DNA of 52,704 nt, from the NCBI GenBank assembly GCA_043814765.1, contig JBDRJQ010000035.1, positions 1 to 52,704 on the forward strand, written 5' to 3'. Positions 10,923-29,560 of the stretch are shown in pieces. Within the stretch, counting starts at the first letter, position 1. Each line of letters opens with the position of its first letter. The notes beneath the pieces are model-generated. The model saw only the letters and a list, made by a program, of their open reading frames with translations, ran no database searches and was not told the origin of the DNA. Source of the stretch: Nanobdellota archaeon (GTDB lineage: Archaea > Aenigmatarchaeota > Aenigmatarchaeia > QMZP01). The position numbers and the translations under genes are program-made.

Positions 10923-10948
10923 GACGACTATATTCAGTATAAGTCGTC
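10923..10948 (-). repeat. tRNA-leader hairpin (family B)
   Basis: GACGACT-N12-AGTCGTC ending 10 nt upstream of tRNA-Val(TAC). Confidence 0.65.
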
Positions 10949-10991
10949 AACCATGATATAACAATTCAATATAATGATATAAATATATCGA

Positions 10992-11237
10992 TTATATTAT
11001 GAAAACACAGCTAGGCATAGTGATCATGCACATTCCTCTAATAAATGTCCTCACTATCCTTAAAACAAAAAAATCATTGCCAGACAGATAAAGTTTTTCT
11101 CCCTGCATGCCCATTACAAGCGGCTCGAAAGCGTCACCAGCACTGCCCACCTTGAAAAGAAATCCCATAAGCACTATTAGTACGATGAATATAAGCATTA
11201 AGATTACTCCGCCAAAATAACCTGAAACAATACCCAT
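10992..11237 (-). CDS. Small hypothetical membrane protein
   Basis: N-terminal TM helix; co-oriented downstream of the MazG-like gene. Confidence 0.5.
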   Translation of the reverse strand: MGIVSGYFGGVILMLIFIVLIVLMGFLFKVGSAGDAFEPLVMGMQGEKLYLSGNDFFVLRIVRTFIRGMCMITMPSCVFII

Positions 11238-11266
11238 AGAAGATAATTGTTTTTCAGAGATAAAAA

Positions 11267-11578
11267 CTATCTCATGTGAAATCCGCCTTTTGCAAGTCTT
11301 TCATTAACTTTCTCAAATTTATCCAAAATAACTTTCTTTGGATCAACTCCAAGTTCAGAAAGCAAAAGAAATGCATAGGTTATTACATCAGCAGCTTCCT
11401 CAGCCATGTCTTCCTTTTCAAGTGGAAAGTCACCTCTTTTTATTTTTTTCAATTTGTTTAACAGCTCTCCGCATTCACCACTCATTGCTATTAGGAAGTA
11501 TTCCCAATTGAACCTACTGTCTTTATCGTTAAGTTTTGCGCGGTCATGGTTCATCTTTGCGAAATCATTAATGTCCAT
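11267..11578 (-). CDS. MazG-like nucleotide pyrophosphohydrolase
   Basis: SGECGELLNKLKK and EEAADVITY motifs. Start re-assigned to ATG 11578 because the longer ORF runs through a repeat and a tRNA. Confidence 0.85.
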   Translation of the reverse strand: MDINDFAKMNHDRAKLNDKDSRFNWEYFLIAMSGECGELLNKLKKIKRGDFPLEKEDMAEEAADVITYAFLLLSELGVDPKKVILDKFEKVNERLAKGGFHMR

Positions 11579-11580
11579 AT

Positions 11581-11636
11581 TTACCTCAGGAAGCGTTAGC
11601 TCCTTTTTGTTTAATCTTTTTCTTGAAAAAAGATTA
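11581..11636 (-). repeat. Extragenic copy of intron repeat family A in the 3' trailer of tRNA-Ser(GCT)
   Basis: TAATCTTTTTTCAAGAAAAAGATTAAACAAAAAGGAGCTAACGCTTCCTGAGG, with compensatory changes relative to the Ala intron. Confidence 0.85.
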
Positions 11637-11637
11637 G

Positions 11638-11721
11638 CGTCGGGGAAGGGATTCGAACCCTCGAGTGCAGATGCACACACGGTTAGCAACCGTGCTCCTT
11701 AAGCCGCTCGGACACCCCGAC
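11638..11721 (-). tRNA. tRNA-Ser(GCT), intronless
   Basis: GTCGGGG/CCCCGAC-G acceptor, CACGG-TT-GCT-AA-CCGTG, long variable arm. Confidence 0.97.
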
Positions 11722-11804
11722 AAATTTTTCTATACTAAAGGTTTATAAGTCTTATTTTTATATTGTTTTATAGTCAGGTTTTCTATTAAAAAAGGGGTGG
11801 TTGT

Positions 11805-26933: not shown

Positions 26934-27853
26934 CGCCACAACTCGCATGTTTTGCATATTTCTTGAGCAGACGGCTCGCCGCATTTTTTGCATACTTTTA
27001 GTTTTATTTTGGTTCCCTTTACTTGGTTTCTTATGATAGGTAAAAACTTGTCAAAAGTTTCAAGAATGGAGTATCTAACACCTGGATATTTTTCTTCCAA
27101 TTCATTTACAAATTTCAATGCATCGCTCCTCAAACCACTATTATAAGGACATTTCTTTTCCACTGCATCCAATTTTTTAATCTTTGCGTATAGTTCAGCT
27201 TCTTCTTCTGGTAGCAATCTTAACGGTTTTATCTTAGGTACGAACAGAGAACCCGTATCTTCTGAGATCGAAAAGTTGGTTATCATACCAAGCCTGCTCG
27301 CACGGGGCATATCTCCTCTTATGTAATTCATTAGAACAGATTGTGCTTCGTTATCAAGATTGTTTCCTACACACAACTTGTCTGCTTTCATCTCACGTGC
27401 GATTTTATTCAGCATATACCTGCGTCCAACACCGCAGTAAGCGCACGGTTCTTTGAGTTTTGTTTCTTCCTTAACTTTCTGATCCATTGTTTTTCCAAAC
27501 TCTTTCTTAAAAGAATAAATTTTATGTTCAATACCCATCTTCTTACACAGCTTCTTTGCTAACTTTATATGCTTGGTTCCAACGTCCTTGATTCCTTCAT
27601 TAATAGAAATAGCTATTAACTCTGTTCCAGGCACTTTGCCAAAAGTTTTGCTCATTATATGCAAAAGGCTTACAGAGTTCTTGCCTCCAGACACACCTAT
27701 TACTATCTTGTCTCCTTTTTGCACCATTCTATGGTCCCTTATAGTGCGTTTTACCTTTCTTTCTACGGATTCACAAAAGTGCTGTTCGCATAGGTATCTG
27801 CCTTCATATGACCTGTGAAATACTGCTTCCTTACAGCATCTGCATTTCTTCAT
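26930..27853 (-). CDS. TtuA/Ncs6 (TIGR00269)-like protein with a degenerate PP-loop
   Basis: Terminal zinc fingers, CAYC and CPY retained; SGGKNS and GNNLDN replace SGGKDS and GHNLDD. Confidence 0.85.
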   Translation of the reverse strand: MKKCRCCKEAVFHRSYEGRYLCEQHFCESVERKVKRTIRDHRMVQKGDKIVIGVSGGKNSVSLLHIMSKTFGKVPGTELIAISINEGIKDVGTKHIKLAKKLCKKMGIEHKIYSFKKEFGKTMDQKVKEETKLKEPCAYCGVGRRYMLNKIAREMKADKLCVGNNLDNEAQSVLMNYIRGDMPRASRLGMITNFSISEDTGSLFVPKIKPLRLLPEEEAELYAKIKKLDAVEKKCPYNSGLRSDALKFVNELEEKYPGVRYSILETFDKFLPIIRNQVKGTKIKLKVCKKCGEPSAQEICKTCELWR

Positions 27854-27939
27854 AACTTCCCTCGTCTTTTTTAAATTAGAAAAGGAGTTTAATAATATAA
27901 TATGCTGGGGTGGCGGAACGGTAACGCACTGGTCTCGAA
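27843..27939 (+). repeat. 97-bp perfect direct repeat, copy 1
   Basis: Identical to 29059-29155; covers the ttuA start, the intergenic promoter and the tRNA-Ser 5' exon. Confidence 0.92.
27904..27939 (+). pseudogene. Truncated tRNA-Ser(CGA) 5' half (positions 1-37) followed by a decayed intron-repeat start
   Basis: GCTGGGG...CTGGT-CT-CGA-A then TAAACCTTTCGAAAATAGG; no 3' exon follows. Confidence 0.8.
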
Positions 27940-28016
27940 TAAACCTTTCGAAAATAGGAAAACATACTATCGATTAAAAGAATTAACAATTTATATAACA
28001 GAAAACAATTATAACC

Positions 28017-29000
28017 ATGAAAAAAATCTGCTGTTTTCTTTATTTCCTATTTTTTGCTCTTTTTTTATCAACATCTGTCTTTGCTCAGACCGATGAAGAT
28101 ATATACAATATGCTGGATTGTTGTTCATTGACAACAACATGCTTTACTGAAGGCGGAGTAGCCACATATAATAAAGTGTGCTTAGCCAACGCTTATTTGG
28201 TGGAAAAGCTAGGCATAAATTGCAGGCAAATACAAGAGGCTACAGAGGGAGACAAAGCATTGGAGATAGAGTTGTTCGGTACCCGATGCGCAGTATTTGA
28301 AGCAGAATCTATATCCTGTTATGACGGTACATGCCTACCGCTAGGTTGCTGCCACATATCAAAATACTATAAAAATGATGTCTCAGGCAATAGCTTCAGC
28401 ATGTCAGAAGAAGAATGCTATGATCTAGGAACAAACAGTGAATGGGAAGTTGGGTCATGCGATTGCGAGACAACAAGAGTATGCATAGGAACTAAAATCA
28501 TGAAAACCAACAGTGACTGCACGTTGTCTTCTAGAGACTGCACTGATAATGCCAAAGAAGATGATGTAGTACACGACAATCCACAATGCACGCAATGGAC
28601 TACGCTGCTTGGATTGCAAGATGCAAAATGCGAGTGCAGTGAGGCATCATGGTGCATAAGCCCCACCGAAATAAGATGGCTATCAACAGATTGCAGTGTA
28701 CACATAACTGATTGCTATAACATGAATTATGGTCCGTATATATATTTATGCTTCCCATTAAGCCATGATAAGGCAAGCTGCAAAAGTGTTGTTCTTCCGC
28801 ATGATGAGCAACCAGGTACTATACCAAGCGGCATAGAGGATTCTGCAGAGCCAGCAACAGGATGGGGAGCCTTTCCTCTGACTGATTCAGCTATAGCGCA
28901 AATAAGCATAATAACAATAACCATTTTAGCAATATTGGTTCTTTATGTGACAAGATCTTCAAAAATTTTTGCCGGCAAAGGCAAAAAAAGAAAGAAATAG
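28017..29000 (+). CDS. Cys-rich secreted, membrane-anchored protein
   Basis: Signal peptide (VFA-QT), many Cys, GWGAFPL, TM helix, KGKKRKK tail. Confidence 0.8.
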   Translation: MKKICCFLYFLFFALFLSTSVFAQTDEDIYNMLDCCSLTTTCFTEGGVATYNKVCLANAYLVEKLGINCRQIQEATEGDKALEIELFGTRCAVFEAESISCYDGTCLPLGCCHISKYYKNDVSGNSFSMSEEECYDLGTNSEWEVGSCDCETTRVCIGTKIMKTNSDCTLSSRDCTDNAKEDDVVHDNPQCTQWTTLLGLQDAKCECSEASWCISPTEIRWLSTDCSVHITDCYNMNYGPYIYLCFPLSHDKASCKSVVLPHDEQPGTIPSGIEDSAEPATGWGAFPLTDSAIAQISIITITILAILVLYVTRSSKIFAGKGKKRKK

Positions 29001-29069
29001 TCGTCTCCACAATTTACATGTCTTGCAGACTTCCTGTGCCGAAGGCTCGCCACATTTACATTTCTTCAT
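28959..29069 (-). pseudogene. Internally collapsed ttuA-like remnant (MKKCKCGEPSAQEVCKTCKLWR...)
   Basis: The first codons of ttuA are fused to a homolog of its last 18 codons (16/18 aa identical, mostly synonymous DNA changes). Confidence 0.75.
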
Positions 29070-29155
29070 AACTTCCCTCGTCTTTTTTAAATTAGAAAAG
29101 GAGTTTAATAATATAATATGCTGGGGTGGCGGAACGGTAACGCACTGGTCTCGAA
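29059..29155 (+). repeat. 97-bp perfect direct repeat, copy 2
   Basis: Identical to 27843-27939. Confidence 0.92.
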
Positions 29156-29320
29156 AAAACCCTTTTCAAGAAAAGGTTTAATCCAAAAGGAGCTAACGCT
29201 TCCAAAAAGAGAGAACCAGCGCCCTCTGGGCTTGCAGGTTCGAAATAAACCTTTTCCAGAAAAGGTTTAATCCAAAAGAAGGCTGAAGCCTTTCATGGAA
29301 CGGAAATCCTGTCCCCAGCG
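29120..29320 (+). tRNA. tRNA-Ser(CGA) with two introns: 58 nt at 37/38 (29156-29213) and 62 nt at 59/60 (29245-29306)
   Basis: GCTGGGG/CCCCAGC-G acceptor, CTGGT/ACCAG stem, long variable arm; both introns carry repeat A. Confidence 0.9.
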
Positions 29321-29380
29321 TATTTATGTCTTTTCATCGAATTGATATAATAGTTGATGGCGAATGCTGTCTAGGTTGTA

Positions 29381-29560
29381 GGGTCCGTGGTCTAGTTGGT
29401 TATGACATCGCCTTGACGTGGCGGGGATCGCCGGTTCGAAATAAACCTTTTTCAAGAAAAGGTTTAATCCAAAAGGAGCGAACAGCATGACGGCTTTATT
29501 CAATCGATATAAGCCGTCCAATTATATTCGCTTCCTGGGGACGGAAATCCGGCCGGACCC
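29381..29560 (+). tRNA. tRNA-Val(GAC) with a 106-nt T-loop intron at 59/60 (29441-29546)
   Basis: GGGTCCG/CGGACCC-A acceptor, TT-GAC-GT loop, GCCGG-TTCGAA|T-CCGGC. Confidence 0.9.

Follow-up and report, generated by a model that had tools for sequence, protein, structure and literature searches.

A family of 30-nt hairpins upstream of tRNA genes and within tRNA introns of Aenigmatarchaeota-like DPANN archaea

The origin of archaeal tRNA introns at odd positions is, to our knowledge, an open question, and the only worked example that we know of, that of the Thermoproteales, comes without a mechanism. In the account given in PMC4090602, the transposed tRNA introns of Thermoproteales (Fujishima et al. 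2010) imply spread at the DNA level by no known enzyme. The hairpins described here, denoted family B, resemble these introns in that one sequence recurs in the introns of several tRNAs and at more than one intron position (genomes G000, G011, and G035), but differ in being a defined 30-nt hairpin, in belonging to DPANN archaea, and in their location, which is mainly leaders and spacers (about 30 leaders), as well as RNase P RNA and regions upstream of protein genes. The split and permuted tRNA genes of Nanoarchaeum equitans and Caldivirga display homology between leaders or trailers and introns (PMC4090602, PMC3293823). Similarly, a family B sequence can be used as a tRNA leader or an intron, whereas the tRNAs are unsplit, a complementary trailer partner is missing, and RNase P RNA is present. 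Like REP/BIME, Correia (NEMIS), and MITE-like repeats, family B consists of short, dispersed intergenic palindromes that are cotranscribed with neighboring genes, vary in copy number, form arrays, and are present in some relatives and absent from others. Unlike these bacterial repeats, it is archaeal, is strictly placed with respect to tRNA 5' ends and TATA boxes, serves as an intron core, shows no clear target duplication, and abounds in genomes without the RAYT/Y1 transposase (PF01797). Ty3 and the Dictyostelium TRE elements are autonomous retrotransposons that Pol III factors guide to a set distance ahead of tRNA genes, where a compact genome offers a safe haven; family B, in contrast, is an archaeal 30-nt hairpin without coding capacity. 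Bacterial 5'-terminal stem-loops, such as that of the ompA 5' UTR, are stable hairpins a few bases from the 5' end that stabilize the transcript, whereas for family B both the function and the 5' end of the transcript are putative, and the RNA portion hosting the hairpin is discarded anyway.

The window analyzed here, a stretch of 52,704 nt from the 0.86-Mb genome of a Nanobdellota archaeon (G000), encodes on its minus strand tRNA-Val(TAC) (10840..10912), detected by ARAGORN and Rfam (73.5 bits). A 10-nt spacer (10913..10922, TCAGCATCCC) separates G1 of this tRNA (10912) from a 26-nt family B hairpin (10923..10948, GACGACTTATACTGAATATAGTCGTC in tRNA sense; −9.2 kcal/mol). Located 26 nt upstream of the hairpin is the TATA-like word ATTTATATCA (10975..10984, PWM score 7.6 bits), a candidate promoter from which transcription would begin at the 5' edge of the hairpin. 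On the same strand, tRNA-Glu(CTC) (21388..21459, ARAGORN and Rfam) and the intron-containing tRNA-Ile(GAT) (21218..21338) flank a 49-nt spacer with a 30-nt hairpin (21348..21377, sense GACGGCTATAAACAATTGATATTAGTCGTC, one G-U pair) that lies ~10 nt past the 3' end of the Glu tRNA and 9 nt ahead of G1 of the Ile tRNA (21338). These two tRNAs are probably cotranscribed because the spacer is too short for a promoter. On the plus strand, tRNA-Val(GAC) (29381..29561), read directly from the sequence, is preceded, 9 nt ahead of its G1 (29381), by the mini hairpin GATGGC-GAAT-GCTGTC (29356..29371, two G-U pairs) and contains a T-loop intron of ~107 nt (about 29441–29547), in which a family B copy (29489..29518) forms the tip of an outer helix (29475–29482 paired with 29527–29534). 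A looser plus-strand variant, AATGACT...AGTCATT (29611..29640; −4.9 kcal/mol, z = −1.2), ends 10 nt ahead of the intron-containing tRNA-Glu(TTC) (29651..29777, G1 at 29651; Rfam). All four leader hairpins, their 9–10-nt spacings to G1, and the intron copy were found where the first-pass annotation had placed them. An Rfam 15 scan of the window returned tRNA matches only, with none to other RNA families, and nothing was matched by Rfam 15 at E ≤ 0.01 in twelve hairpin-bearing loci of G035.

The G-U wobbles of the leader hairpins, previously described as working only on the sense strand, do so in the Ile hairpin (−9.9 kcal/mol in sense vs −5.1 in antisense) and the Val(GAC) hairpin (−6.1 vs −1.5), but not in the Val(TAC) hairpin, which folds equally well on both strands. 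The claimed 24/30 identity between the intron copy and the Ile leader was reproduced with both in tRNA sense, compared to 20/30 in the opposite orientation, and the composite of outer helix and family B tip in the Val(GAC) intron folds at −22.8 kcal/mol (z = −4.9). Taken singly, the leader hairpins have modest folding z-scores (−1.2 to −2.3), and strong hairpins are frequent in the noncoding DNA of the source genome, about 34% of random noncoding 48-mers folding at ≤ −6.8 kcal/mol; the case therefore depends on what the hairpins have in common in sequence and location rather than on how stably they fold. The strict pattern GACGRC-N12-20-GYCGTC occurs three times in the window against 0.00 expected (100 shuffles), and the genome-wide motif scan suggested in the first-pass annotation gave 11 matches in G000. 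The modest z-scores and the abundance of hairpins, along with clearly paralogous upstream regions such as those of Arg(TCT) and the C8b tRNA, would suit unrelated hairpins arising by chance in A/T-rich spacers, or remnants of duplicated tRNA genes, with no common origin or behavior. Such an origin is contradicted by the shuffle expectation, the fixed tRNA spacing in about 30 cases, and the covariation of pair 5-26 (see below), and fits poorly with copies at non-syntenic loci and a consensus common to many genera; we consider it extremely improbable.

In the family B consensus, a stem of 8 bp (GACGRCTT/AAGYCGTC) closes an A/T-rich loop of 14 nt, whose oriented core, ..ATTG-R-AT.., runs in tRNA sense in almost every copy whose orientation is determinable. 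Among 67 copies of exactly 30 nt, in which positions 1–8 pair with 23–30, the comparative check supported the stem: the R-Y pair 5-26 covaries (A-T in 18 copies, G-C in 44, discordant in 5; Fisher p = 3.6e-12). At pair 7-24 of aligned family B copies, about 8–10 T-G wobbles on the sense strand stand against 3 C-A mismatches. One orthologous hairpin differs by two compensatory double changes (GACGACT/AGTCGTC vs AACGTCT/AGACGTT). In at least one intron copy, the stem contains an A-C mismatch on the sense strand. Mini versions have tetraloops such as CTTA or GAAT, the loop is reduced to a tetraloop at orthologous sites, and the distance between the arms ranges from 4 to 18 nt. The motif is conserved, the same 30-nt consensus recurring in many genera, and the hairpins form one family that spans an order of Aenigmatarchaeota-like DPANN archaea. 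The order-wide conservation of stem sequence, 30-nt length, oriented loop motif, and spacing looks like the outcome of purifying selection rather than junk.

The arrangement of hairpin, 9–14-nt spacer, and tRNA start was counted at about 30 genes from about 15 genera belonging to at least 4 families; on the 3' side, only 4 copies directly follow a tRNA, and two of them precede another tRNA. Specificity for Val and Ile tRNAs, as originally proposed, did not hold: related hairpins in G000 also adjoin Arg, His, Ala-type, and Glu tRNAs, and in relatives the list extends to Lys, Phe, and Asp tRNAs, among others. In every genome, the majority of tRNAs lack a hairpin, and no hairpin was found at the Val tRNAs of six other genera. 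Units of tRNA, hairpin, and tRNA with 7–12-nt arms are present in G000, its congener G001, and G011. The arrangement Glu-hairpin-Ile is present in all three genomes and is thereby kept in two genera; the G001 Glu-Ile spacer consists of 8 nt, GACGAC-CTTA-GTCGTC, and 11 nt, with no TATA box. Family B hairpins also make up the body of D- and T-loop introns: in G000, T-loop introns on contigs C13, C29, and C35 contain a copy, and in G011, copies occupy D-loop introns of two Glu tRNAs and one Ser/Leu-type tRNA and T-loop introns of Lys and two other tRNAs. G035 combines stacked modules within an intron of ~500 nt with identical dispersed copies. By eye, 3x3 internal loops adjoin the stem. RNase P RNA, which the first-pass annotation had proposed to look for, was found in G000 and in 33 of the 41 genomes searched. 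One family B copy lies within this RNA; at the corresponding site, other genera show either an unrelated hairpin or none. A few copies precede protein genes, and some lie 36–44 nt upstream of a tRNA or gene with a TATA-like word between. Tandem units of hairpin and spacer occur, as do genus-specific flanks common to different tRNAs of one genome.

In the archaeal BRE/TATA core promoter, the TATA box is centered about 26–27 bp before the transcription start. The dyad centers of 29 leader copies fall at −21.5 to −29 relative to the tRNA +1; the loops of family f2 (G025 and G060) read TTTATAAT or TTTAATTA at about −30 to −23, and in G000, Val(TAC) and Arg(TCT) have the word CTTATA at about −31 to −24. 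These positions would agree with a promoter palindrome at the DNA level, in which the loop is the TATA box ~26 bp before +1 and the arms are either the operator of a dimeric regulator controlling a tRNA regulon or symmetric TFB contacts. A DNA operator had indeed been suggested from TATA-like loops, but few loops besides those of family f2 are TATA-like: the TATA score stays under 3 bits in 18 of 24 leader loops, and the mini versions have only tetraloops. Furthermore, the variable arm spacing would not be tolerable for a dimeric DNA-binding protein, the stem covaries instead of holding one half-site sequence, and many copies reside in introns and RNase P RNA, places in which a promoter would be pointless; we regard this explanation as decidedly unlikely. 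In 9 of 13 leader cases, a TATA word of at least 6 bits is found 14–33 nt ahead of the hairpin, as scored with a TATA model that is weak in the A/T-rich DNA of this genome, and a strong TATA word is present 19–28 nt before the hairpin in four of five further copies. In hairpin-less tRNAs, the same word is found 17–28 nt before +1. Because the distance from TATA to hairpin matches that from TATA to +1 in hairpin-less tRNAs, transcription probably starts at the 5' edge of the hairpin. By the same sequence comparison, the hairpin-less tRNAs of the clade appear to be nearly leaderless, and those bearing the hairpin appear to have leaders of ~45–50 nt. The RNA leader proposed in the first-pass annotation gains plausibility from these upstream TATA words (19–28 nt before the hairpin) and from the copies in tRNA-tRNA spacers that have no room for a promoter.

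Copy number varies from 0 to 30 (11 in G000, 10 in G001, 30 in G011, and 26 in G013), and 13 of 61 relatives have no copies. Comparison of the two congeners reveals recent changes. A copy with ~12 nt of flanking sequence is present in G001 (C44:2625), and the orthologous site on C9 of G000 is cleanly empty; an 85-nt unit at C57:3519 of G001 separates two genes that abut in G000 and has a match with 82% identity at a non-syntenic G000 locus; and a copy 3' of tRNA-His is present in G001 and absent in G000. These gains and losses and the patchy copy number fit the idea, raised as an alternative in the first-pass annotation, of a second mobile hairpin. In a search limited to PF01797, the Y1 transposase was absent from the copy-rich G000, G001, G011, G013, and G035; this family is encoded in 13 of 61 genomes, unrelated to copy number. 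TCGAA-type T-loop words border intron copies, where the bulge-helix-bulge (BHB) splicing fold may demand such words, and CCCGAAA(A)CC borders one G060 leader copy; the signs of target-site duplication are thus equivocal, and most flanks are apparently part of the unit or too diverged to be judged for target-site duplication.

Two explanations remain to be weighed. Family B could be a functional leader or spacer RNA of pre-tRNAs that, as a 5'-terminal stem-loop, shields the primary transcript from 5'-end-dependent decay, prevents misfolding of neighboring tRNAs, or offers a handle for RNase P or another conserved protein, with the intron and other copies being secondary uses. The order-wide spacing of 9–14 nt, the preference for the 5' side of tRNAs (about 30 vs 4), the sense-oriented loop motif, the sense-only G-U pairs of Ile and Val(GAC) and the T-G excess at pair 7-24, the compensatory changes, the maintenance of Glu-hairpin-Ile in two genera, and TATA boxes at a fitting distance upstream of the hairpin all point in this direction. 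Against it stand the fact that 13 of 61 relatives, the majority of tRNAs in each genome, and the Val tRNAs of six genera do without the hairpin, the gains and losses between congeners, the replacement of the full loop by a tetraloop at orthologous sites, the A-C mismatch in an intron copy, and the copies 36–44 nt upstream with an intervening TATA-like word. A dedicated role in tRNA 5' maturation is not supported, and we consider a functional leader or spacer RNA possible but somewhat unlikely.

The explanation we favor, to which we assign about an even chance, is that family B is the core stem-loop of a cassette that the genome can do without and that multiplies through copying; its hairpin would be transcribed at the 5' terminus of the leader and then be eliminated by RNase P or splicing. 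This small, non-autonomous cassette would consist of ~7 nt of 5' flank, the 30-nt hairpin, and 8–12 nt of 3' flank, would move at the DNA level, and would insert where it is harmless, that is, in discarded portions of RNA precursors. Such sites would be tRNA 5' leaders (9–14 nt before +1), spacers of cotranscribed tRNAs, D- and T-loop introns (with the hairpin as their central helix), an expansion site in RNase P RNA that varies between genera, and a few mRNA leaders. Before tRNAs, the hairpin would most likely be the 5'-terminal stem-loop of the ~45–50-nt leader, with transcription beginning within a few bases of its 5' edge and RNase P cutting off the hairpin-bearing leader. Counting against this explanation are the absence of PF01797 from the copy-rich genomes, the equivocal target-site duplications, the features suggestive of purifying selection, the Glu-hairpin-Ile order shared by two genera, the compensatory double changes, and the weakness of the TATA model. 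More speculatively, and in our estimation with a rather small chance of being correct, the cassette, lacking its own transposase, could be aimed at transcription starts and tRNA D and T loops, its target possibly being single-stranded DNA in open complexes or folded tDNA, and could shuttle between leader and internal positions, creating long leaders and noncanonical introns; alternatively, the loop could be the site for a pre-tRNA-handling factor common to the order.

In annotation, the hairpins help find tRNA genes missed by standard tools; Rfam found only 22 tRNAs in the source genome. The coexistence of apparently leaderless and cassette-bearing tRNAs is a natural experiment on the substrate tolerance of RNase P. 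Occurring as leader, spacer, intron core, and RNase P RNA expansion, a single 30-nt hairpin becomes a traceable element for intron birth, and its presence in many genera, combined with recent gains and losses, makes family B useful for following this process. The small genomes of these DPANN archaea appear to confine selfish DNA to the discarded parts of RNA precursors, and shuttling between leader and internal positions, if true, would amount to an active route by which archaeal tRNA genes acquire introns.

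The family B hairpins are 30-nt stem-loops with the stem GACGRCTT/AAGYCGTC and a 14-nt A/T-rich loop, which is a tetraloop in the mini versions. All five elements reported for the window in the first-pass annotation, four leader hairpins and one intron copy, were confirmed in the sequence. The leader hairpins end 10 nt before the first tRNA nucleotide (+1) of Val(TAC) (10923-10948, minus strand) and Glu(TTC) (29611-29640, plus strand, a looser hairpin), and 9 nt before that of Ile(GAT) (21348-21377, minus strand) and Val(GAC) (29356-29371, plus strand, a mini hairpin). The fifth copy (29489-29518, plus strand) lies at the tip of an outer helix in the Val(GAC) T-loop intron and, with both read in tRNA sense, has 24 of 30 bases in common with the Ile leader. 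In the Ile and Val(GAC) hairpins, the G-U pairs support good folding only on the sense strand, as had been proposed (-9.9 vs -5.1 kcal/mol antisense for Ile; -6.1 vs -1.5 for Val(GAC)). The strict pattern GACGRC-N12-20-GYCGTC matched three times in the window, against 0.00 in shuffled sequences. The folding z-scores of single hairpins are modest, 34% of random non-coding 48-mers from the genome reach -6.8 kcal/mol or better, and folding-energy enrichment of hairpins upstream of tRNAs was not significant (10 of 32 upstream regions, P = 0.68). Because the z-scores are modest and hairpins are frequent in non-coding DNA, the case for the family rests on common sequence and position rather than on energy. 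Just upstream of Val(GAC), at approximately 29128-29340, lies a Leu-type tRNA gene (GCTGGGGTGGCGGAACGG...) that was missed by both ARAGORN and Rfam and contains two introns made of hairpins of the other family, A (AAACCTTTT..AAAAGGTTT).

A motif scan of the whole genome (G000; the window is contig C35 of its 859-kb assembly, which has 39 contigs, a G+C content of about 37%, and an estimated completeness of 88%) identified 11 strict family B copies as well as diverged ones. The earlier reading is partly supported: the observation stands, but the proposed restriction to Val and Ile tRNAs does not, the family being far larger. In about 10 of the 32 placed tRNA genes, +1 is preceded at 5-10 nt by the end of a hairpin, whose stem is of the strict B type in some cases and related or different in others (GATGAC, AATGAC, CGACAT, GTTAAC, and CTGGAC). 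Four copies are located within T-loop introns or intron-like composite hairpins, with the flanks cgaaMagcat ... ttcgcttcc, and copies also precede protein genes encoding FtsZ-like and CDC48-like proteins and the tRNA-splicing endonuclease. The last of these is a strict copy (contig C37:38639-38668) located 43 nt upstream of endA (PF01974, 1.7e-22; gene start C37:38712); a link to this gene was rejected, the hairpin-endA arrangement not being conserved in two other Aenigmatarchaeota metagenome-assembled genomes.

Among 61 related genomes, the copy number ranges from 0 (13 genomes) to 30; raw pattern counts in the GC-rich relatives G053 and G059 were discarded as noise, the controls being equally high. 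The comparative alignment of 67 thirty-nt copies shows an 8-bp stem and a mainly unpaired 14-nt loop, in which ATTG (positions 15-18) forms a core with a defined orientation. The sole variable stem pair covaries (A-T in 18 copies, G-C in 44, discordant in 5; Fisher p = 3.6e-12). As a test of DNA versus RNA function, loop orientation is ambiguous in G000 because the loop centers (CAATTG, CGATCG-like) are palindromic. No Rfam family matches the hairpin, and literature searches found such leader hairpins described nowhere. Insertions in the 3' part of the large subunit (LSU) rRNA gene on contig C29 of G000, 39 nt (locus L001:148-186) and 111 nt (L001:723-833) relative to the archaeal model, fold as long hairpins of -13 and -38 kcal/mol; these were ruled out as family B copies and could represent expansion segments or introns of the rRNA.

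An order-wide scan for a hairpin followed by 4-15 nt and a tRNA-like start yielded about 30 genuine tRNA leaders from about 15 genera in at least four families, with spacers of 9-14 nt that are tight inside each genus. In several genomes (G005, G025, and G060), tRNA leaders account for roughly half of the copies. By contrast, a position directly 3' of a tRNA is occupied by only four copies, two of which precede another tRNA. The recurrent unit is tRNA, 8-12 nt, hairpin, 7-11 nt, and tRNA, found for Glu-Ile in G000, its congener G001, and the related genome G011, for Asn-Phe in G001, and for Leu-Val and Val-Glu in G011. In G000, the Asn and Phe tRNA genes have an inverted arrangement and a wider separation than in G001. 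Leader-trailer pairing or a bulge-helix-bulge motif was considered; inspection by eye showed no more than short outer helices, with 3x3 loops, around the leader copies. A tRNA-Phe of G000 (contig C3:14253-14345) seemingly starts with GGGGG and continues, after a 16-nt insert (tttaccttaggccata), with ACAGTAGCTCAG; the insert is possibly an intron in the acceptor stem.

The geometry of the leaders, with a dyad center near -26, is attractive for a promoter or operator, and an operator role had been suggested from TATA-like loops. The model used to score TATA-like words was derived by EM from the upstream regions of 31 hairpin-less tRNAs (motif starts -46 to -21); it is weak and provides statistical hints only. 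Of 24 leader copies, 18 have loops that score below 3 bits, so most loops are not TATA-like; the family that comprises G025 and G060 is the exception. Furthermore, tetraloop versions exist, the spacing of the arms is variable, and copies occur in introns and in RNase P RNA. The promoter/operator reading fails on these points and is considered unlikely. Strong TATA words (at least 6 bits) are found upstream of the hairpin: among 13 leader copies with upstream room, 9 have such a word ending at a distance of 14-33 nt, and in four of five further copies it ends at 19-28 nt; the distance is 26 nt for Val(TAC), 24 nt for the endA copy, and 28 and 19 nt for G001 copies. Given these upstream words and the mostly non-TATA-like loops, the transcription start probably coincides with the 5' edge of the hairpin. 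In hairpin-less tRNAs, the best TATA-like 10-mer ends 17-28 nt before +1, which implies very short native leaders and suggests, judging by these sequence signals, near-leaderless tRNA transcription despite the presence of RNase P RNA. Such tRNAs are found in the window at 10666-10799, 11638-11721, 21388-21459, and 41501-41637 and on other contigs; Val tRNAs of other genera have the TATA-like word TTTTAAATA at about -31 to -23. The cassette accordingly resembles a segment of about 45-50 nt inserted between the transcription start and tRNA +1. Before tRNAs, it would form a 5'-terminal leader hairpin that would be cut off by RNase P, the RNA gene of which is present.

Family B copies are probably transcribed, those in introns by definition. 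The Glu-Ile spacer of G001 is only 35 nt long, includes a 16-nt tetraloop version, and contains no TATA-like word, and therefore, the downstream tRNA must be cotranscribed through the hairpin. Interrupted tRNA genes are numerous in G000. Three T-loop introns in G011, as well as D-loop introns in two Glu tRNAs and one Ser/Leu-type tRNA, have the hairpin as their body; in two paralogous tRNA-Glu(CTC) genes at loci L127 and L128, the D-loop introns are almost only a B hairpin (24 and 29 nt), with 3-nt flanks (TCC...TGG). In the related genome G035, a T-loop intron about 500 nt long contains stacked CGAACAG...-plus-hairpin modules. The RNase P RNA candidate of G000 (C29:6798-7150; L001:1501-1853) is a full-length match to the archaeal model at 57.8 bits, below the Rfam cut-off of 84, and is conserved in relatives. 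The idea that RNase P is absent or replaced by HARP was set aside since this RNA is present, and together with the archaeal LSU rRNA, it identifies the host as an archaeon; the nearest named relatives of one G000 protein are from Candidatus Aenigmatarchaeota metagenome-assembled genomes. Within the window's genus, this RNA contains a B hairpin between CR-I/P7 and P8; the copy is a mini version (GATGGC-ATAT-GCCGTC) in G000 and full-length (30 nt) in G001. In other genera, the site is empty or holds an unrelated hairpin, and variable extra hairpins occur there across the order.

The genomes G000 and G001 share synteny, with a nucleotide identity of about 75%, and the differences between them show gain and loss. 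One copy with flanks of about 12 nt is a clean indel, and a copy 3' of tRNA-His is found in G001 only. In G001, two genes that abut in G000 are separated by an 85-nt unit made up of the hairpin and its 3' flank; this unit recurs at a non-syntenic G000 locus with 82% identity. At two orthologous sites, the loop is expanded or contracted (30 vs 16 nt). G035 carries several identical dispersed copies. Tandem hairpin-plus-spacer units are common upstream of tRNAs, and genus-specific 3' flanks are common to different tRNAs (ATTCCAA, TTTCCAA, TAAGGCTT, nCCCGAAA, and TTAGCTGT); thus, the copied unit is a cassette rather than the bare hairpin. A Y1 (IS200/IS605, RAYT-type) transposase was rejected as the mobilizer, being absent from copy-rich genomes. 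A small AbrB/SpoVT-like reading frame (…RIDYKGRISIPADLRRSFGL…) reaches or enters the 5' end of tRNA-His in both G000 (C39:7600-7849) and G001 (locus L088).

A real function, such as 5' end protection, folding insulation, or a protein handle, is possible: stem, length, loop core, orientation, and spacing are conserved order-wide, G-U pairs occur on the sense strand, and the stem of one orthologous G000/G001 hairpin shows two compensatory double substitutions. A TATA box that serves the neighboring gene has one G001 copy, absent from G000, on its far side at the hairpin-to-TATA distance given above, a hint that promoter-proximal DNA is targeted rather than that the RNA is under selection. Among known phenomena, the closest are transposed tRNA introns in Thermoproteales and the homology between leaders and introns in split tRNAs (both PMC4090602), along with bacterial REP, Correia, and MITE-type repeats. 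Because a RAYT is lacking, family B is not, strictly speaking, a REP. The interpretation with the best support is that of a dispensable cassette, spread by copying and housed in the discarded parts of RNA precursors. Family B can be grouped with transposed tRNA introns and with palindromic repeats of the small, non-autonomous type, and its position is unusually strict and informative.
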